Positions 1 to 9,465 of a stretch of 53,878 nt of DNA are shown here, piece after piece. Position 1 is the first letter of the stretch; the number at the start of each line of letters is the position of its first letter. The stretch is from Leptolyngbyaceae cyanobacterium (lineage in GTDB: Bacteria > Cyanobacteriota > Cyanobacteriia > Phormidesmidales > Phormidesmidaceae): contig JBHJHA010000006.1 of NCBI GenBank assembly GCA_050331235.1, positions 1 to 53,878 of the forward strand, read 5' to 3'. Both the position numbers and the translations under genes were made by a program. The notes under the pieces are model-generated. The model was given only the letters and a program-made list of their open reading frames with translations, ran no database searches and was not told the origin of the DNA.

Positions 1-671
1 ACAACTAGGGCTTCTTGTGCCGGATCTGACAAATCGTCGTTCTGCACTTGCAATACATCGAGAATGATCTGCTTGGCAGTAGCGATATCATCGCCGTAGC
101 CAATGCCAATGTCGTACTGCAGGCGGCGCTTTTCGTAGGCGGTATTGACCGTGACTGAGTTAGTGAACAATTCACCATTGGGGATCACTACCCGACGCCC
201 ATCATAGGTGCGAATGGTCGTTGCTCGGGTCTGAATCCGTTCGACCGTGCCCTCATAATCGCCAAAGACAATTTGGTCGTCTAGCTGAAAAGGCTCGGTC
301 AGCAAAATTAAAATGCCCGCGAGAAAGTTTTGCAATACGTCGCGAAAGGCAAAGCCAATAGCGACCCCGCCGATACCTAAGGTGGCCAATAAATCAGCAG
401 GCTGAAAGCTGGGAAAGACGATAGTCAGGGCAATCAACAGACCCAGAATAATCAGTGCGCCTTGGGCCAAACGACCGAAGACAAGGCCAAAATTGCGAGA
501 CTTTTTACGCCCACTTGCAAGCCGTTTGACCAAGTTGCGGAGCAACCGAGCCGCAATCCAAAAAATGACGAAGACAATGATGCCTAAGATTAAGCTCGGC
601 AACAGCTTGATGGCATACTCCGTCATGGAAGCAATCTTTTGCCAGGCTAGCGAGAGGGAAACGTCATCCAT
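1..671 (-). CDS. Small-conductance mechanosensitive channel (MscS family), 3' end runs off window
   Basis: Not in the ORF track. Manual translation from ATG at 671: MDDVSLSLAWQKIASMTEYAIKLLPSL...LGIGGVAIGFAFRDVLQNFLAGILILLTEPFQLDDQI...EGTVERIQTRATTIRTYDGRRVVIPNGELF, which is the MscS TM3 and beta-domain signature. Confidence 0.9.
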   Translation of the reverse strand, partial: MDDVSLSLAWQKIASMTEYAIKLLPSLILGIIVFVIFWIAARLLRNLVKRLASGRKKSRNFGLVFGRLAQGALIILGLLIALTIVFPSFQPADLLATLGIGGVAIGFAFRDVLQNFLAGILILLTEPFQLDDQIVFGDYEGTVERIQTRATTIRTYDGRRVVIPNGELFTNSVTVNTAYEKRRLQYDIGIGYGDDIATAKQIILDVLQVQNDDLSDPAQEALV

Positions 672-791
672 AGCGATATGAATCGATAATCAATATTTTC
701 CCGAATCTATCAAACGGCTCTAATCCACGAAATCTATCCGCAGACAGTCGTTCTACCCTGAAATCATCGATGGCTGGAGCGATCGCTCAAC

Positions 792-1823
792 TTACAGCAC
801 AAACAGCAACATCACAGCTAAGTAAACACCGTAAAGGCCAACCAGGACTCCCACCTCCCACAGCTCAAAGCTGTTATCCTGCTGCCCCCATTGGATAAAG
901 GCAGCATACACTCCCCCCAAAAGCGCGACAAAAAATAGATTAACGGCAAATAAGCGACCATCTTGAATGGGCACATTGACCAGCGCCAAGGGAAAAAAGG
1001 CCAGGGTCATGGTGGCAATATTATCGGCAATGACGCTGGTGGTCGCCGCCGTGACCTGGCCGCTGCGGGCAATGCTCCAAGTGGCAAAAACCTCGGGGGC
1101 AATACTCAGGGTGGAAGTGATCAACAGTCCCCCAATCAGCTCTGAGATGCCCAAAATTGCGACAATGTTTTCAGTCGCAACCACAATCAGATAAGCCCCG
1201 ATCGCCAGCGCGAGCATACCGCCGATCGCACCCCAAAGTTCTGGGGGATGCCACTTGACTGGCTGCGGCGGCTGGCGTTTTCGACCTAGTGCCTGCCCCA
1301 CATAAATCCCGTAGGCAGCCAGCATGATCCACCCGTCAATGGGCTGTAGTCCTCGCCACGATGGGGGAATTGTGAGGATCGCGGCGAGGGCAATCACGGC
1401 CAAGTAAGGGATCGCTTGAATGGTCAGGGCCTCGGGCTTGACGCGCAAGGCCCGCCAAGAGTCGACGCGAGTCAGCCGAGACGTTGATCGGGGCGATCGC
1501 GGCCCCTTGTAACCATTCATTGAGTCCTGAGGAGACTGGGTTTGAGAGGCTAGATACGCCACGCCGACGATCGCTGGTACCGAGATGATGTTGCTGCCGA
1601 GCAAATTACCGAGACCGATGTCTGACAACCCCTTTAGCGCGCTCGCCGAGTTAGTCCCAATCTCAGGACTGGCTGTGGCCAACGCCACAAAGGCGGCCCC
1701 AGCGGCTTCGGAAAACCCCCAGCGGGTCCGTAACTTTTGTAGCGGTACCGAAAGCCGGTCAGCTCCCCAATGGGCCGCAAAAATCGCTCCCATCAGCAAT
1801 GCACTCCACAGCAGTAAGCCCAT
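792..1823 (-). CDS. Ca2+/cation antiporter (CaCA, YrbG-like Na+/Ca2+ exchanger family)
   Basis: About 10 hydrophobic helices; alpha-repeat motifs ALATASPE...GNLLGSNI and STLSIAPE...VIADNI. Confidence 0.85.
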   Translation of the reverse strand: MGLLLWSALLMGAIFAAHWGADRLSVPLQKLRTRWGFSEAAGAAFVALATASPEIGTNSASALKGLSDIGLGNLLGSNIISVPAIVGVAYLASQTQSPQDSMNGYKGPRSPRSTSRLTRVDSWRALRVKPEALTIQAIPYLAVIALAAILTIPPSWRGLQPIDGWIMLAAYGIYVGQALGRKRQPPQPVKWHPPELWGAIGGMLALAIGAYLIVVATENIVAILGISELIGGLLITSTLSIAPEVFATWSIARSGQVTAATTSVIADNIATMTLAFFPLALVNVPIQDGRLFAVNLFFVALLGGVYAAFIQWGQQDNSFELWEVGVLVGLYGVYLAVMLLFVL

Positions 1824-1911
1824 AGCTGGTTACGTCTCATAAATACAGCATCATCCAGCACGGGGACGCGCGCCCCCATCCATTAGCGTTTGTTCCAGTC
1901 AGCGAATGAGC

Positions 1912-2694
1912 TCAGGCCCATTGCAACATCAACGGCGGCAGCCAACCAAAGCGAACACCAACGGCCAAGACAAAAACCGCAACAGAACCGACTAAGAAAC
2001 TAATATCCAAAGAATCAATTTTCGGGAGGTTGAGCTTTTTACGGCGCTTAGTGGCCGAAAAGCCCCGCATCTCCAACACGCTCATCATTGGCATCGCCCG
2101 CCGCAGAACTGAAATGATCGTTGGCACCATCAGCAATGGGATGCCAGTAATCCACGTCATCGGATTGCGAATCTCCAGGTCGACACCCTTAGCCCGCATA
2201 GCGTTGGCAATGCGAAACACATCGTCGGCACTACGATACACCAGCAAAAAGACATACTCCACCACGAAACAAATAAACTCAGGTAGCCCTAAGCCCCTGA
2301 GGCCATCGGCAAGCTCTTTGACGGTCATCGTCGAAACGAGGCTGACGCTGACAAATAAAGCCGCCGACCACGCCAGAGAAAGGCGACCCCCAAATGCCAA
2401 GCGTCCACTATATTCCAACCCTCCTGAAGCGATCAGTTGGCCAATAATGGGAACTAGCACTAAAGCCAAAATATTCGGCAGTTGCAATAGCCACAAAACC
2501 AAGAGAAATCGCTTGGGCATTTGGGAAATCAGAGCCAGCAAGAGTCCCAAAACGGTCATTCCCAACATCCACTGCCAGGTAGGAGCAAAATACAAAAATA
2601 AGACTAAAAAAACGAACATCAAAATCTTGATACGGGCATCTCGGCGGTGCAAGATCGTATCTTTGTCGTTGTAAATAATGGGGACACGAGCCAT
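1912..2694 (-). CDS. ECF transporter transmembrane (T) component, CbiQ/EcfT family
   Basis: LHRRDARIKI N-terminus; coupling-helix motifs AMRAKG and LEMRGF; its ATG directly abuts the ATPase stop (TAAATG). Confidence 0.88.
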   Translation of the reverse strand: MARVPIIYNDKDTILHRRDARIKILMFVFLVLFLYFAPTWQWMLGMTVLGLLLALISQMPKRFLLVLWLLQLPNILALVLVPIIGQLIASGGLEYSGRLAFGGRLSLAWSAALFVSVSLVSTMTVKELADGLRGLGLPEFICFVVEYVFLLVYRSADDVFRIANAMRAKGVDLEIRNPMTWITGIPLLMVPTIISVLRRAMPMMSVLEMRGFSATKRRKKLNLPKIDSLDISFLVGSVAVFVLAVGVRFGWLPPLMLQWA

Positions 2695-4410
2695 TTATGC
2701 GACCTCCTGTAGTGACGTGGATGCAGCTTCGACAACTTTGACGCTGATGGCTCTACCGCCTAGCCGTTGAGCGGCTTGGGCAGCCATGGGCGGACACACT
2801 GACCATTGGGCTAGCTGCTCCCAGTTTTCCGGGGCAAATACCCGATGCAGGCTATCCTGCATAGCAATCTGGCCATCGTAAATCACTGAAACGGTGTCTG
2901 CGACATGGCAGGCAAAATCCATAGCGTTGTTGACCAAAATGATGGCTTTGCCCTGTTCTTTAAGTTTAAAAATCAACGCTTGTAGATGCTGACGCGAAGG
3001 CGCATCGAGACTAACGCAGGGTTCATCGAACACCACTATGTCAGGATCGAGGGCGAGTGAGGCAGTAATCGCTACGAGCTTGCGATAGCCCATGGGCAAA
3101 GCGGTGGGATCTTGCTCCAGCAGTTTTTCGTCGAGCTGAATGCGATCGCACGCCCGTTGCGCAGCCTGCTCAATATCCCCATCACTGTACCGCTGCTCTT
3201 TAGAAAACCACCCAGTGGACCGATACTGACGGCGCTCTAGGGGAAACTTGATTTCGGCTAAAACCGTACGCTCACTGAGCTGTTCATCAGGGTTTTGCTG
3301 CGCGGCCCCAATGCTGTTAGCCAGATTAAAGACTTTTGCTTTCGTTGTCGGCTGGCCACATACCGTGACAGTGCCAGAAAGCGGTTTGCATATGCCCATC
3401 ATCAGCTTTACTAGGGTCGATTTTCCAGCACCGTTACCGCCTACGATGGTGTGCACTTCCCCCCGACGTACCTCTAGGTTGGCGTTCTCAATTGCGCGGG
3501 TGCCGTCCTCGTACTCATAGGCCACGTTCTCCAGTCGCAAAACGGTTTCACCAAAGGACGGATCGTCGTCTGCGGTTGGCTCCGGGAGCGGCCCAATTTG
3601 GTCAGCCGCTTGCGACAGCTCATCCAGGCTCAGTGGTGCAGACGAAATCCCTACGGCCTGTGCCACGCGAGTGTAAATGGGGATTTCTACCTGAGCCTCG
3701 GCAAGCAAATTGTGATCGCGCAGCAGCTCACTGGCTTTGCCGTACCCCATCATCTTGCCGTCTTTCAAAATCAAGGCCTGATCGGCAATTTCTACGATTT
3801 GGTTGATGTCGTCTTCGACCACGACGATGGTCGTATCCCCAGCCAAATCGACCATGATTTCGCGGACATCTTGACGAGTTTTGGGGTCGAGCATACCGGT
3901 CGCACTGTCAAAAATGATGACGGCGGGCTGCATCGCCAAGATCGCTGCGATCGCAATCCGCTGTTGCTGTCCTCCCGAGAGCTCCCAAGTTCGCCGATTT
4001 TCAATTTCGTCGGGCGCTAAGCCCACTTGAGAAAGCAAATAGCGAGCGCGATCGTAAGCTTCCCCTTCCGGCACAGTTTGGTTGAGCAGAGGCGCCATTA
4101 CTTCGTGAATGACTCTGACCTGGGTAAGTTGTGAACTGTAATCTGCAAACACTAAACCTACCGACTTTGCCATTTCATAGCCAGCTGTTTCGGCCGGATT
4201 ACGATTATCAATTTCCAGAGCCCCTGCCAGGGTGCCTCCGGTAAATCTAGGGGCAAATCCGGCCAATATGCGACAGAGGGTTGACTTGCCCGCTCCCGTG
4301 GGGCCAATGACGCCTAAGATTTGTCCCCGTTCCAGGTGAAACGACACATCATCTAAGACCTTGCGATCAGAATCGGGATAAGAAAAAGAGAGATTTTCAA
4401 CAGAAATCAT
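2695..4410 (-). CDS. ECF transporter fused tandem ATPase (A-A')
   Basis: Two ABC domains with Walker A GPTGAGKST and GGNGAGKST; LSGGQQQR signature in domain 1; adjacent to the T component. Confidence 0.9.
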   Translation of the reverse strand: MISVENLSFSYPDSDRKVLDDVSFHLERGQILGVIGPTGAGKSTLCRILAGFAPRFTGGTLAGALEIDNRNPAETAGYEMAKSVGLVFADYSSQLTQVRVIHEVMAPLLNQTVPEGEAYDRARYLLSQVGLAPDEIENRRTWELSGGQQQRIAIAAILAMQPAVIIFDSATGMLDPKTRQDVREIMVDLAGDTTIVVVEDDINQIVEIADQALILKDGKMMGYGKASELLRDHNLLAEAQVEIPIYTRVAQAVGISSAPLSLDELSQAADQIGPLPEPTADDDPSFGETVLRLENVAYEYEDGTRAIENANLEVRRGEVHTIVGGNGAGKSTLVKLMMGICKPLSGTVTVCGQPTTKAKVFNLANSIGAAQQNPDEQLSERTVLAEIKFPLERRQYRSTGWFSKEQRYSDGDIEQAAQRACDRIQLDEKLLEQDPTALPMGYRKLVAITASLALDPDIVVFDEPCVSLDAPSRQHLQALIFKLKEQGKAIILVNNAMDFACHVADTVSVIYDGQIAMQDSLHRVFAPENWEQLAQWSVCPPMAAQAAQRLGGRAISVKVVEAASTSLQEVA

Positions 4411-4517
4411 CTGAGATGTTCAACCTCGAACAGTTGATGCTTGACGGCATTCCACGTCCTTGAATATTTGGCTCTGTGATCGATTTAGGGATCCGCTATC
4501 GACCTGACCACAAATTC

Positions 4518-4621
4518 AAAATAAATCAAAGCAGAGCTTGCCCCACTTTGATTATTTTCAAAAAAGTGTTCCTTATTCAACAAAAGAAGCACGCACCATT
4601 CGTCTTTTGTTGAATAAGGAA
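4518..4621 (-). terminator. Tandem stem-loops between the ECF S gene and the ATPase gene (terminator or mRNA-stabilising element)
   Basis: Perfect 19-bp inverted repeat TTCCTTATTCAACAAAAGA (4569-4587) / TCTTTTGTTGAATAAGGAA (4603-4621), followed on the minus strand by CACTTTTTT. A second imperfect hairpin lies at 4518-4558. Confidence 0.7.
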
Positions 4622-4649
4622 AAATGAGCAATCACAGCATTACTCGCGA

Positions 4650-5249
4650 TTACATGCGAATCCGAAAACGAGTTCGTGCAGTAGTGCCGCTTTCACGCTG
4701 AGCAGGGGAGTATCCCAACAAACGCTCCACCCGACCATATAGGAGAGGAACAACCATCAACAAAGGAATCGCGCCGAGAGCAATGCCATGAGTAAACGTA
4801 TTTCCTAACAGGGCCCGTAGAGCGACAGGGAAGCCTTCTTCACCAAAAATCATCAGAGCGGCTGCCTCAAAAGCGGCCTGTACAGCAGCGCCAACGATCG
4901 CCCCAAACACAAGCAGCATTTTGTTTTTCGGCTGATTTCTAAAGATGTAGCCGGCAACCGCAAAGCCAACTATGTAGCCGATAAAACCAAACGGATCGTC
5001 TACCTCGTAACCCTCAATCAGATCTAGAAACCCTTCACCGACTGCAGCCCCGAACCCGGCAGCCCAAGTAGGTCCACCTAACGGCAAAAGTGCAATAATT
5101 GCGTAAACGATAAAGAAAGGCTTCCAGTCAATATCAACTGGAATTTCAGGAATTCGCTCAAAAATCAGGAGTCCAATTGCAAATAGAACGGCAGTAATAC
5201 CAGTAACTGTGATCAGTTTTACAAAGCTTGAGTTATTCGAATTTGCCAC
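4650..5249 (-). CDS. Putative ECF substrate-specific (S) component
   Basis: 199 aa, about 6 TM helices, glycine/alanine-rich (GFGAAVGEG, GAIVGAAVQ); GTG start with GGAGG SD; first gene upstream of the ECF A and T genes. Confidence 0.75.
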   Translation of the reverse strand: MANSNNSSFVKLITVTGITAVLFAIGLLIFERIPEIPVDIDWKPFFIVYAIIALLPLGGPTWAAGFGAAVGEGFLDLIEGYEVDDPFGFIGYIVGFAVAGYIFRNQPKNKMLLVFGAIVGAAVQAAFEAAALMIFGEEGFPVALRALLGNTFTHGIALGAIPLLMVVPLLYGRVERLLGYSPAQRESGTTARTRFRIRM

Positions 5250-5989
5250 CTTAAACCTCCAGCAGCGCGTAGTTTCAAGCTGGCAGGTAGGGATTCAGGT
5301 AGCATCGTTCGGACTCAATATCCCAACCAATACTAAATGAACCTTTCGACAAAATCTAAAACTTTATAGGTTTCATCGGTGTCCGCCAACATGTCTATAA
5401 AGTATTGGAAGTGAAATTTATCAATCTTTAATAGACGTCAAAAATTCAATTAATTGGATATTAAATCAAAGAATCTACGTCTACAGCGTCAATTTAAATT
5501 CCTTTTCTATGCCCCTTTAGATACATTAGGTCCTCCAACTTTGAGTAGAATTCAATAGCAATTCATCTTATATTGCTTGCGTTAAGGAGTATCGGACTTC
5601 AGCAAAACCGTATCGATGAGATGATTGGTTGAATAAAACGCAATCATCTAGACCTTTAGTTCCAGAAAGGCTCATAGATATTCATCGTCTAAACCTTGAA
5701 AATTTGATATCAGATTATAAGTCCTCTATTGATTGCAACTGACGATTGTTGAGAGTTAGTCAGTTTTCTGAAAAATTAATGTTCCAGGTCTCGCATCAAT
5801 TAATCCACCATAATTGGAGGCCTGATTGCTGAAGGCCGCAATCAGGCTGTGTGGCATAGAGCCATAACCACTAGGCTGATGGACGCGAGAAAGCACCCGC
5901 CATCGCCTAGAGCCGTTGAGCACCAGCGAAATTTGATTGGGTCGTCATCCTAGTGCGGTGTGGGGACATTTAGCAGCGCGCCCTCTTGC

Positions 5990-7087
5990 TCAGGCGTTTG
6001 TCGCCTGCTGGTGGATTAATTTCTGCACACTGATCAGAGCTCGATTAAGCTCCGGGCCTTTAATCTGAGGTTGGTTGAGATAAGCTGCTTGTTCTTGCTC
6101 AAGCATCAACACATCTTGAGCGACTAAGCCGTCTAGCAGCCCAGTGGCAGCGCCAAACATCCTGTTTTTGACCCAGCGGCGAAATGCGATAGGCAGCTTA
6201 TGGAGCCGATGAAAGGGTTTTAGTGAAGTGAAGTGAATTAAATAAGCGTGGGTGTGAGTTAAGTCAACGGGGCAAAACAGACAGCAAATTTTGAAGTCTT
6301 GGCCCAATGTCGCAACCCAGTGGGGATAGACATAGCTGACCCGCAGCTCTTCTGGGTGGAGCTGCCGGAGGGCCGGAAAGAACAGCTGCGACACCGACCA
6401 AATCTTGTCAATGCGATAGTAGCTCTGAGCATTGTAGAGCACATCTACACGCTGGTCGGTGGTCTCTAGGTTGGCCAGAACTGGATCAGCCCAAGCTTGT
6501 AGGTCGTCGTGTAGACGCCCATGGTACATGTCTACCAAATTCTCAATCAGAAAAGAGTAATGGGCCTTAACGTCAATGATGGCAACGCTAGCAATGTAGT
6601 TGAGGTCATCCCACTCGGGCAGTTCCATGGGTTGGATATCTTCCCGGATAAGCCGTTCGCGATCGCCCGGAAATAGCCAGATAAACCCGTCTTGTTCTCG
6701 CGCAGGGTAGGTTTTGACCTGACAGCTAGGAAGCTTTTGATCAGCGGCCAAATAGGGAACGTGGGTGCAGTGGCCGGCAGCATTGAACTGCCAACCATGA
6801 TAAATACATTCCAAGTTGCCCTCGGTGACCTCGCCCTCGCTCAGCTTGACCTGGCGGTGGGGACAGCGATCTTCAAGGGCCTGAATGTCACCGTTGGGTC
6901 CCCGAAACAGCACGATCGCCTCACCCCACAGCACCACGCCATGGGGGCGATCAGTCACCTCCGTGGAGCGAGCGACCACATACCAGTGATGGGGATTAAT
7001 GCCCAGCGATCGCACATCTTGGCGGCCCGCAGGGCGGCTAGCAGCTTCAGGGGTCGATTGAGAGGGCAAAGCAACCATGGCGGACAT
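5990..7087 (-). CDS. cruH: Rieske non-heme iron oxygenase, probable chi-carotene C18 hydroxylase (CruH-like)
   Basis: Rieske CPHR...CIYHGW; mononuclear Fe motif ENLVDMYHGRLH; immediately downstream of the cruE-like gene. The symbol rests partly on context. Confidence 0.65.
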   Translation of the reverse strand: MSAMVALPSQSTPEAASRPAGRQDVRSLGINPHHWYVVARSTEVTDRPHGVVLWGEAIVLFRGPNGDIQALEDRCPHRQVKLSEGEVTEGNLECIYHGWQFNAAGHCTHVPYLAADQKLPSCQVKTYPAREQDGFIWLFPGDRERLIREDIQPMELPEWDDLNYIASVAIIDVKAHYSFLIENLVDMYHGRLHDDLQAWADPVLANLETTDQRVDVLYNAQSYYRIDKIWSVSQLFFPALRQLHPEELRVSYVYPHWVATLGQDFKICCLFCPVDLTHTHAYLIHFTSLKPFHRLHKLPIAFRRWVKNRMFGAATGLLDGLVAQDVLMLEQEQAAYLNQPQIKGPELNRALISVQKLIHQQATNA

Positions 7088-7157
7088 AACTCCTCAAAGG
7101 TTTTGAGCGAACATTTTGAGTGGGGTCGGTCTGAGTTTGTGTAGAAAATCTTAGCAG

Positions 7158-9116
7158 CTAGATTTTGAGGGCACCCTCAGGATTAACCGACAAAATGGGA
7201 CGTCGCTGGGCACCTTCTTGATGCAGGATGGTATTCGCCGCCATCAGGCCACTACTCACGGCGCGTTCCATCAAGCCGCAGGGAAAGGGCATCTTAACCC
7301 AGTCACCGGCAAATAATAAGTTAGATGCAGCGGTTTGGGTGGCAGGGCGATTGGCAAAGCTTCCAGGAGGATATCCGGCAAAGTTTTTTTGATTGACCAG
7401 CTGCATATGTAACAACTGCGCCTCCTGCAATTCCGGAACGATTTCAAACAGCTCGGCCCGAAACGTCGCTAGCAGCTCCTCTTGGGTCGGAAACTCGGTC
7501 TCTTTATAGCCGTAGGCATGCAGCTCCACAACGCTGCCCCCGGTTCTTTCCGCCCATTGGATGTAATCCTCCTGAATACGGTGATATAGGGTGATGCTGT
7601 CGGTCAGGCGATAGCCAGACAACGACGCAAACAGGCTGTGGTTCCACTCAAAGTCTCGATCAAACCAAAAGCGCCCCACCGCAAAGGGATCGGCCACCTG
7701 CAGTTCATTGACTTGGGTGACCACAGTGGGTTCTATGGTGCCAGTAGATAGCGATAGCAAATGCTTGATTCCAGGAATATCAGCGGCCAGCACGTAATAA
7801 TCAGCCTCTAGGGTTTCAGTCGTACCGGGTGCAGACTCATCCATCACGGCCAGAAGCTGAACGCGATCGCCTTGGCGGTCAAGCACCCGATAGCGGGTCA
7901 GATTATCTTGAGCTGGTCCGCTCAGCACTGTGCCGTCGGCGGCATACATCGCGCCATGGCAGGGACAAGCGTAGCTTCCATCGACGCTGGCATTCACCGT
8001 TTGATGCACGGTACAGCCCTGGTGCGTGCAGGTCAAAGAGAGTGCTTCCTGGCTGCCAGGGCGATGGCTAAACACGCGATCGCCGCTGCCAAAGTACTCA
8101 ATCTCTGCGGTACTGAGTAACGGATTGCGATCGACCCAAAAAGGAGCCAGATCTTCAGCGATCGTACCCTGTCGATAGGTGACGTGGCTAATCTGGCCAT
8201 CCTGCCAACCGAGCTGATTGACCATGGCTCCCGTGATCACCTGCCCCCCATTCTCCCGAATGGCGTTGGCAATGGGATCGACTAAGCTCCGCCCCATATC
8301 CTGACAAGTTCCATTGAAAGCCAGCCCTTCTGGGTTGCCAAAAAAGTAGAAGTGGAAAAACTGCATCAGTTCGCCGACACTCATGGCGTCGGGCGCATTC
8401 ATCGTAGCTTTAGCAAAGGGAAGGAAATAGAGATCAAACAGCCCTTGGGGAAAATCTTCCTTGACCCATTCCGTTACGGAAAACTGATCCAGCCGCTCAA
8501 AACTTTGGGGAATCCCAAAGCCGGTAATTTCCCGAAAGACTTGCAGGTGCTTGAAGTTGGTCAAGTTAATCCCCCACTTCAGCCGATTAGGCGAGTTCAC
8601 CGCGAGGTCAACGATATTCCAAGGAAAGGCTGAATGGCTGGGGCGGAAGTCTTCTGTCTGGTAGCCATCTTTATAAACGACAGAGTAGTAGTCCAGCGAT
8701 TTAAAGTTCCGGCGGACCTGCAGCTCTTCGACCACGCTAAAGAGGTTGTAATACTGCGGGAAAAAGCCATGGAACCCGTGTTCCATCATGAGCTGCTCAT
8801 CCCCTACCTGCACTGGCCAGCTAGCAATCTTGCCACCAAGCTGGGGCGATCTTTCCAAAAGCGTCACCTGAACGCCGCGCTGACTGAGTTCATAAGCGGC
8901 AGCGAGTCCGGCCAGACCACCACCCACCACCACTGCCTTAAGGTCGCGTCCTGGCTGGCGCGGGAGATCAAGCGTGTCTTTTTGATGCACCGTGGGCTCA
9001 GGTTTGCTAAATCGGGAGTAGCCTAATCCGGCAGCAAGGGTACCAAATCCAAAAAGTTTAAGAACACTGCGACGCGACAGGGTTTGCAGAGGAGAAAGTT
9101 CCGGAAGTGGGGACAT
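7158..9116 (-). CDS. cruE: FAD-dependent carotenoid desaturase/methyltransferase with inserted Rieske domain (CruE/CrtU family)
   Basis: GGGLAGLAAA FAD motif, EHGFHGFFPQYYN, internal Rieske CTHQGC...CPCHG, C-terminal FAGDW...LMERAVSSG. Start placed at ATG 9116 (MSPLPEL). Confidence 0.8.
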   Translation of the reverse strand: MSPLPELSPLQTLSRRSVLKLFGFGTLAAGLGYSRFSKPEPTVHQKDTLDLPRQPGRDLKAVVVGGGLAGLAAAYELSQRGVQVTLLERSPQLGGKIASWPVQVGDEQLMMEHGFHGFFPQYYNLFSVVEELQVRRNFKSLDYYSVVYKDGYQTEDFRPSHSAFPWNIVDLAVNSPNRLKWGINLTNFKHLQVFREITGFGIPQSFERLDQFSVTEWVKEDFPQGLFDLYFLPFAKATMNAPDAMSVGELMQFFHFYFFGNPEGLAFNGTCQDMGRSLVDPIANAIRENGGQVITGAMVNQLGWQDGQISHVTYRQGTIAEDLAPFWVDRNPLLSTAEIEYFGSGDRVFSHRPGSQEALSLTCTHQGCTVHQTVNASVDGSYACPCHGAMYAADGTVLSGPAQDNLTRYRVLDRQGDRVQLLAVMDESAPGTTETLEADYYVLAADIPGIKHLLSLSTGTIEPTVVTQVNELQVADPFAVGRFWFDRDFEWNHSLFASLSGYRLTDSITLYHRIQEDYIQWAERTGGSVVELHAYGYKETEFPTQEELLATFRAELFEIVPELQEAQLLHMQLVNQKNFAGYPPGSFANRPATQTAASNLLFAGDWVKMPFPCGLMERAVSSGLMAANTILHQEGAQRRPILSVNPEGALKI

Positions 9117-9465
9117 GTATTCCGCAATCGATAGACAGTACGTAAAGTTCGAGCTAGTCAACCACCGGCGAGTGGGCAATCATCGCTTATGACCATGCCG
9201 CAAAAACTCGCTAAAACAGGCGATATCTAGGAATTTCTTAAAATATATGGCGTAAATCTTAACAGGAGTCCGAAACCTTAGAGCGCCGCTTTTTTTATTA
9301 TTCACTGACGACTGATTAATCTTTTTTATAATTGCCGCTCAAGGTCTCCTATTTGCCTAGGGGTCGGTTTATCCAACGTCATGGGAGCGATCGCCAAGAT
9401 CCCCCCCTCACTGACACAACAGGGATGCTCCTAGTGGCTAAGTACGGAGTTCTCGCCCAAGAGGA

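Follow-up and report, generated by a model that had tools for sequence, protein, structure and literature searches.

A DUF8171 energy-coupling factor importer of cyanobacteria with a conserved acidic pocket and a possible metal-phosphate cargo

Energy-coupling factor (ECF) importers are known for the uptake of vitamins, heme, cobalt and nickel. Group I ECF systems consist of a dedicated S component, a T subunit and A/A′ ATPases (PMC10662466). A cluster of five open reading frames (ORFs) resembling such a system lies at positions 1-5249 of the window, by which we mean the whole 53,878-nucleotide stretch analyzed, from contig JBHJHA010000006.1 of a Leptolyngbyaceae cyanobacterium:

4650-5249, minus strand, S component gene (199 aa, GTG start)
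2695-4410, minus strand, fused EcfA-EcfA′ ATPase gene (571 aa)
1912-2694, minus strand, EcfT gene (260 aa)
792-1823, minus strand, calcium/cation antiporter (CaCA) exchanger gene (343 aa)
3-671, minus strand, MscS channel gene, truncated at the contig end

An original prediction, made from the sequence alone, had read this series as five co-oriented genes, and ORFs and family profiles confirmed it. The ATPase matched the ECF ATPase models TIGR04521 and TIGR04520 above cut-off, T matched CbiQ/EcfT (PF02361; 68 bits), and the last two genes matched Na_Ca_ex (PF01699) and MS_channel (PF00924) of Pfam. Close spacing was also predicted, and it held where the T start abuts the ATPase stop codon and for the T-CaCA (88 bp) and CaCA-MscS (120 bp) gaps, but the S-A gap of 239 bp is not short and holds two hairpins. 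The S-A-T order was found at every distinct locus having a complete S gene, 16 in all: the window, 11 other cyanobacterial loci (one with a shortened ATPase) and 4 noncyanobacterial ones. Locus counts leave out the S fragments G668 and G765 and take loci that duplicate others (L009, L015, L016 and L018) once; G, L, P and C numbers are our handles. The noncyanobacterial context comes from plasmid records and short contigs, a scan of genome contigs having given one locus and a first metagenome scan none. Both X-Arg/Lys-Gly motifs are present in EcfT, and K169-G170 and R210-G211 are invariant in 11 T proteins. The system shares with group I ECF importers an operon of S, fused A-A′ and T, the EcfT Arg motifs, a six-helix S fold and predicted S-T docking via helix 1, whereas it differs in an S protein of no named family, a polyanionic pocket, one ATP site that is degenerate family-wide and a helix-1 T-x-x-x-A. 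From gene order, fold and T motifs, we conclude that the cluster encodes a dedicated (group I) ECF importer, outside every characterized S family and with a noncanonical ATPase. Our favored reading of its function, to which we give a probability of about 0.4, is that it imports a calcium- or magnesium-phosphate or phosphoester complex and that the CaCA exchanger expels the metal.

The S protein reached no curated family of Pfam or NCBIfam above cut-off. Its best score was for PF07155 (20.3 bits versus a cut-off of 26.7), which 4 of 45 S relatives reached at an E value of <0.01. A precomputed profile match labeled the protein PF26509 (DUF8171), a label shared by 48 of 54 search matches and also given as an Atlas name. 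A search of the PDB with the S sequence returned no match. The vitamin S families RibU, ThiT, FolT, PanT and BioY were rejected, because no family hidden Markov model (HMM) scored above cut-off and no cognate riboswitch was present: Rfam detected no riboswitch in positions 1-7000, just two sub-threshold small RNA (sRNA) matches (E values of 3.3 to 3.8) on a hairpin. CbiM/NikM was rejected for want of a PF01891 match and of the Met-His start seen in CbiM controls. Thus, the placement of S outside the vitamin families, the lack of a vitamin riboswitch and the missing Met-His N-terminus all came out as predicted. The host genome, cyanobacterial by its genes and by the relatives that genome searches returned, encodes BioY and CbiM outside the ECF cluster. 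MreD, which appears as a database and Atlas name, was also rejected, given that S-A-T operons house the gene and that TIGR03426 was matched, weakly, by 1 of 45 members. We conclude that the S protein belongs to a short clade of DUF8171.

Structural comparison was consistent with an S component. The AlphaFold (AF2) model of S, with a predicted local distance difference test (pLDDT) score of 92, has the six-helix S-component fold, and its top 15 VIA matches were S components or BtuM (best Z, 16.5; 4hzu_S, ThiT), with a root mean square deviation of 2.5 to 2.8 Å over 158 to 164 residues for the top S components. Foldseek alone gave no match at an E value of ≤0.001. Vitamin S components (ThiT, RibU, PdxU2/HmpT-type 4hzu, FolT, PanT and BioY) are the closest folds (Z, 11 to 16.5), to which the weak PF07155 score adds a further likeness, but they are 9 to 16% identical to the window S, which has no riboswitch. 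CbiM/NikM has the same fold (4m5c, Z of 12.9; 5x3x, Z of 9.9) and a metal-type cargo as is proposed here, but the window cluster contains no CbiN/NikN-type gene. A modeled S-T complex scored 0.69, versus 0.00 for the best control, with at least 84% of contacts agreeing between runs and a partner pLDDT of 82; the score mark is reached by 116 of 157 solved pairs and 2 of 215 mismatched pairs, and a calcium ion placed in the model lies outside the score. The pass may stem from likeness to solved ECF complexes and would then show likeness rather than binding. Helix 1 of S lies in the predicted interface. An AxxxA motif in that helix is described as docking S on T (PMC11109136); the window S has T16-x-x-x-A20, and A-x-x-x-A occurs in 45 and small-x-x-x-small in 73 of 91 relatives.

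The two acidic segments predicted in S are present, at residues 31-43 and 71-88. Across 91 distinct S relatives (mean identity, 50%), 12 Asp/Glu columns were at least 90% conserved, and 11 of the 12 map to L1, outer H3, L3/H4 and H5 on the helix map of the model. These pocket acids are E31, E35, D39, D41, E72, D76, E79, E82, D84, D85 and E128, accompanied by invariant K43 and N150. E35, D39, D41, K43, D76, E79, G80, D84, E128 and N150 were invariant in the 91 relatives, and E31, E72, E82 and D85 nearly so. In controls treated the same way, BioY had no conserved acid (n = 30; one in a subset of 17 sequences with 60% identity) and CbiM had one (n = 30), versus 12 in the short clade. Halophile bias is an unlikely origin, as the same acids are kept across cyanobacteria, actinobacteria and alphaproteobacteria. 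By the helix map, the conserved residues fall on the L1 lid, outer H3, L3/H4, H5 and H6, which would place them on the substrate-binding side known from S components. Acid conservation, which the original prediction had left to be checked, is the strongest result of the analysis. Moreover, the uncharacterized ECF system with a hard-cation pocket that it proposed stands, as none of the three contrary results it had named (a vitamin S family, relatives unlinked to CaCA genes and unconserved acids) occurred in full. We conclude that the pocket probably binds a metal of some kind.

One way in which an acidic pocket could work without metal is by binding an organic cation. Polyamine-binding proteins use acid-plus-aromatic pockets, and conserved Phe/Tyr residues accompany the pocket acids of S. 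The importer might then carry a polyamine, phosphocholine or an amino-sugar phosphate through carboxylate and aromatic contacts, with CaCA as a passenger, and phosphatase neighbors of a sister clade, described below, would fit a phosphorylated organic substrate. We consider this a poor prospect: eleven acids are more than such ligands need, no polyamine or choline gene was recognized near the short-clade loci, and the repeated recruitment of CaCA, including T and CaCA frames that overlap or nearly abut in G717, G922 and G1083, would be left unexplained.

The ATPase departs from the canonical arrangement. Each of the 15 unfused short-clade ATPases has a first Walker B motif without Glu, a first H-loop without His and a degenerate second signature, indicating that one ATP site is dead. 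The second site keeps Walker A, the Q-loop and the Walker B Glu in all 15, and its H-loop His is replaced by Asn in all 11 cyanobacterial ATPases, the window's included. Two intact EcfA domains were thus not found, which would lower the case for a canonical ECF system and not that for ECF-like working. Sixteen search matches fuse S to the ATPase, and 5 of the 16 are ATPase-T single chains in which S has decayed (3 of the 5 judged by eye). The five chains (P0065, P0068, P0070, P0073 and P0074; about 660 to 700 aa) have no recognizable Walker A and are, by their sequences, candidates for an ATP-independent ECF derivative. Both these chains and the absence of His from both H-loops in all 11 cyanobacterial ATPases could mean that the module is no longer an ATP-driven importer and that S serves, on an ATPase scaffold that has been weakened, as a facilitator or a sensor in the membrane. 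That explanation is very unlikely, as the motifs kept at the second site in every unfused protein look selected for one working site.

The gene immediately downstream of T encodes a CaCA exchanger at 8 of 13 distinct loci having S and T in cyanobacteria (the window, G1164, G1083, G922, G717, G747, G002 and G083) and at none of 4 distinct noncyanobacterial loci, so that the predicted recurrence of the linkage was borne out within cyanobacteria but not beyond them. Seven of the linked loci use a window-type CaCA, which is encoded in just 13 of 401 genomes; G083 has a YrbG-type CaCA instead, and both types occur in G002. Linkage spans both cyanobacterial S clades and two unrelated CaCA types. Common descent of the ECF-linked CaCAs was unsupported: in a quick tree, they are interspersed with unlinked copies. 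We conclude that the CaCA-ECF linkage in cyanobacteria is real and recurrent. The G002 locus (L006:7364-9877) is a decayed copy in which S breaks after about residue 135 and runs into T and the ATPase is missing, with both CaCA genes intact.

The ion handled by the exchanger is less certain. Like YrbG and NCX_Mj, the window CaCA matches PF01699 above cut-off, has two repeats and keeps both alpha-repeat Glu residues. It differs from them in scoring far below the TIGR00367 cut-off (60 versus 180 bits) and in its other alpha-repeat motifs, including flanking Ser/Asn/Asp positions, judged by the residue roles in NCX_Mj. Close plasmid relatives lie near CDF or P1B heavy-metal exporters in 5 of 5 cases read, so Ca2+ specificity of the window CaCA is not safe. 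The heavy-metal-linked plasmid CaCAs form a separate subclade, and ECF-linked CaCAs differ from them in alpha-repeat motifs. A CaCA subclade (L113-L115 and L118-L122) with mostly His in the second repeat motif adjoins ZntA-like P1B ATPases, CDF exporters, ArsR/SmtB and lspA and likely comprises heavy-metal rather than calcium exchangers.

These data bear on whether the cargo is a scarce hard metal such as Mn2+, Fe3+ or a lanthanide, in which case the atypical CaCA would act as a safety valve. Consistent with such a cargo are the conserved Tyr81/Tyr92 and His/Asp154 beside the pocket acids, an NRAMP-like gene located two genes downstream of T in L014, the heavy-metal export clusters around window-type CaCA relatives and the reported PhoB control of iron-related physiology in Synechocystis (PMC11126600). 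We nevertheless rate it improbable, given the differing alpha-repeat motifs and given that no metal regulator or lanthanide-type dehydrogenase was recognized beside the short-clade loci read, save ArsR of arsenic operons.

The main rival to a metal-phosphate cargo is import of free Ca2+, for example, to load Ca-dependent PhoX/PhoD or secreted Ca-binding proteins, with CaCA efflux as balance. PhoX and PhoD require Ca2+; both are encoded in the window genome and also beside a haloarchaeal locus. Eleven conserved carboxylates, the 8-of-13 CaCA linkage and a Calx-beta/RTX protein that follows the G083 locus likewise favor free Ca2+. Ca2+ normally enters downhill, and ATP-driven import is needed only when outside Ca2+ is very low. 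The rival is unlikely because Ca2+ entry seldom needs ATP, because import and export of the same ion from one operon would be futile and because the sister clade has sugar-phosphate-type regulators rather than metal regulators. The predicted pairing of Ca2+ cargo with an efflux exchanger survives in its acids and CaCA link, and it falters on the exchanger's specificity and on a family context that favors metal-phosphate. The proposed role of MscS as an osmotic valve was unsupported, and MscS was rejected as a conserved partner, since it directly follows the cluster only in the window genome; MscS-like genes lie kilobases away in G717 and G002, and G1164 ends at a contig edge.

The short clade is rare. 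A word search returned 54 proteins, and in overlapping samples of cyanobacterial genomes, short-clade S genes were present in 3 of 401, 2 of 173, 2 of 52 and 8 of 389, with named relatives in actinobacteria, Rubrobacter, haloarchaea and alphaproteobacteria. A quick tree joined the window S and two close relatives from cyanobacteria to haloarchaeal and Rubrobacteraceae S proteins (SH-aLRT, 99), apart from the other cyanobacterial clade, which suggests that cyanobacteria acquired the short-clade S twice. The sister, long DUF8171 clade (about 290 aa) comprises at least 2,670 proteins, many misannotated as "cell division protein FtsQ." It is homologous to the short clade (hhalign, 99.2% over 186 columns; shared E31, E72 and G80), has the S-AA′-T order and conserves an acidic set of its own (10 acids), but it has extra C-terminal helices and ATPases with the Walker B Glu and the H-loop His in both halves (6 of 6). 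Instead of CaCA or PhoU, its S genes neighbor a phosphatase (PHP, HAD, ComB or IMPase) in 7 of 7 loci, of which the seventh was judged by eye from its ORFs, and RpiR or LacI regulators in 3 of 7, the loci being nonindependent samples. We conclude that the long clade is likely a sugar-phosphate ECF family. One long-clade copy, which is experimentally tractable, lies on Haloferax volcanii pHV3; a microarray study (PMC6560208) covers this locus but compares an sRNA mutant with the wild type and is uninformative.

Phosphate genes also surround short-clade loci, a signal missed by the original prediction. PhoU was present in 4 of 4 haloarchaeal records (3 distinct loci), which are flanked also by a Pst operon, PhoX, two PhoD genes and arsenic genes. 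A 148-aa membrane protein without a Pfam match follows T in all haloarchaeal loci (L008:12142-12588, L010:12235-12681 and L011:12146-12592) and is possibly an accessory ECF subunit. In cyanobacteria, the SphR box is described as an array lying upstream of the promoter, in which YTTAAYYW occurs two to four times with 3 bp between copies (PMC1906773, PMC13226834). A Pho-box matrix was seeded with that consensus and trained on 12 of 21 pstS/phoX upstream regions. Pho-box-like triplets at a P value of ≤0.05 preceded 10 of 13 cyanobacterial S genes, versus 5 of 40 control intergenic regions; import of free Ca2+ would also explain them. The wider family context points to phosphate and favors a metal-phosphate cargo over free Ca2+.

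A metal-bridged phosphate is proposed because an acid cage needs a cation and a phosphate-linked family needs a hold on an anion. In the metal-phosphate mechanism, the S pocket acids would face the substrate side and hold one or more hard divalent ions (Ca2+ or Mg2+), and the metal would bridge to phosphate or a small phosphoester, with K43 and N150 as possible oxygen contacts. S would topple in the membrane, with the single intact ATP site driving release, and the downstream CaCA would export the co-imported metal, so that its role would not be futile. Phosphate would control expression via the SphR/Pho system in most cyanobacterial carriers. Pit systems are described as transporting MeHPO4 complexes (PMC2797804); joint entry of metal and phosphate is what PitA would share with this importer, from which it differs in fold and energy source, so that the likeness is one of analogy, not membership.

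Several observations weigh against a metal-phosphate cargo. A pocket of eleven acids and one Lys would be a better match for a cation than for an anion, ECF systems carry micronutrients and do so slowly, and the window genome already has PstS genes. No CaCA adjoins T in 5 of 13 cyanobacterial loci (G972, G967, G571, G419 and L014), and the Rubrobacter locus, with an Mrp antiporter downstream, shows no phosphate gene. For the region upstream of the window S, the matrix gave no significant score (P = 0.64; rank, 880 of 3,027), nor did it for those of G1083 (P = 0.34) and G747 (P = 0.69), and the matrix ranks three true pho genes of the window genome poorly (290, 359 and 2,596). Of the 10 significant cases, 8 have the better strand opposite to S, which would fit activation, repression or another regulator alike, and 2 have a divergent regulator gene to which the site could belong. 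Finally, the cyanobacterial loci are related to one another, and those of haloarchaea come from a single lineage. Upstream of the window S, two elements were nevertheless recognized:

5425-5465, minus strand, four TTAA-like 8-mers at an 11-bp pitch, a weak Pho-box-like array, not significant by the matrix
5399-5404, minus strand, −10-like hexamer downstream of the array, from alignment with relatives

The phased repeats and the −10-like element align among the window and its two closest relatives, G1164 and G1083.

No paper on DUF8171/PF26509, and none on an ECF system for calcium or phosphate, came up in a literature search; novelty is provisional, as the main ECF reviews lay outside its coverage. 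Reviews may list a calcium-linked ECF system of lactic acid bacteria, which the search did not find. To our knowledge, dedicated Ca2+ importers are poorly known in prokaryotes. A carboxylate-cage S component, if real, would add a new class of ECF cargo, be it a metal-phosphate complex or a hard cation (for example, Ca2+). Uptake of metal-bound phosphate by such a route would be important in mats and soils that are alkaline and rich in calcium. The window DNA is present in stromatolite metagenomes from a single study, possibly including its source, and was listed in no RNA data set. A bolder proposal is that this is the first ECF S component to capture phosphate or phosphoester with a hard-metal cluster in a polycarboxylate pocket, wired to the Pho regulon and a metal-expelling exchanger, on a one-site ATPase that in some lineages decays fully to S-T in one chain, so that the family would form a natural series of toppling transporters, the first ATP-driven and the last ATP-independent; taken whole, this is doubtful. 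The family is useful for the study of energy coupling: its small protein is well modeled and has 11 residues open to testing, its ATPase is one-site, and S-A-A′ and S-T fusions occur naturally. Moreover, a large set of "FtsQ" and "MreD" misannotations is corrected.

The S-A gap contains two hairpins:

4569-4621, minus strand, perfect 19-bp inverted repeat shortly 3′ of the S stop codon (fold z score of −4.3 for the gap)
4524-4553, minus strand, second hairpin with a U tail, terminator-like, from sequence scan and fold

The inverted repeat likely stabilizes the S mRNA. The terminator-like hairpin would yield S in excess over A and T; terminator-like sites in the region are not more numerous than expected by chance. 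On the same strand, 740 bp upstream of the ECF cluster, a Rieske oxygenase and a Rieske-containing CrtI/CrtU-like flavoprotein are encoded at 5990-9179, a pair not seen at the other loci.

The window contig (C6) and contig C5 overlap at their ends, with 88% identity over about 146 nt (window 1-150 versus L183:1-146). Two of the differences were checked in reads, which agreed with C5. The mismatches resemble contig-end errors, and the contigs are probably adjacent in the genome, with the MscS gene probably continuing on C5. Glutamate synthase comes next after MscS on C5, indicating that the cluster ends at MscS.

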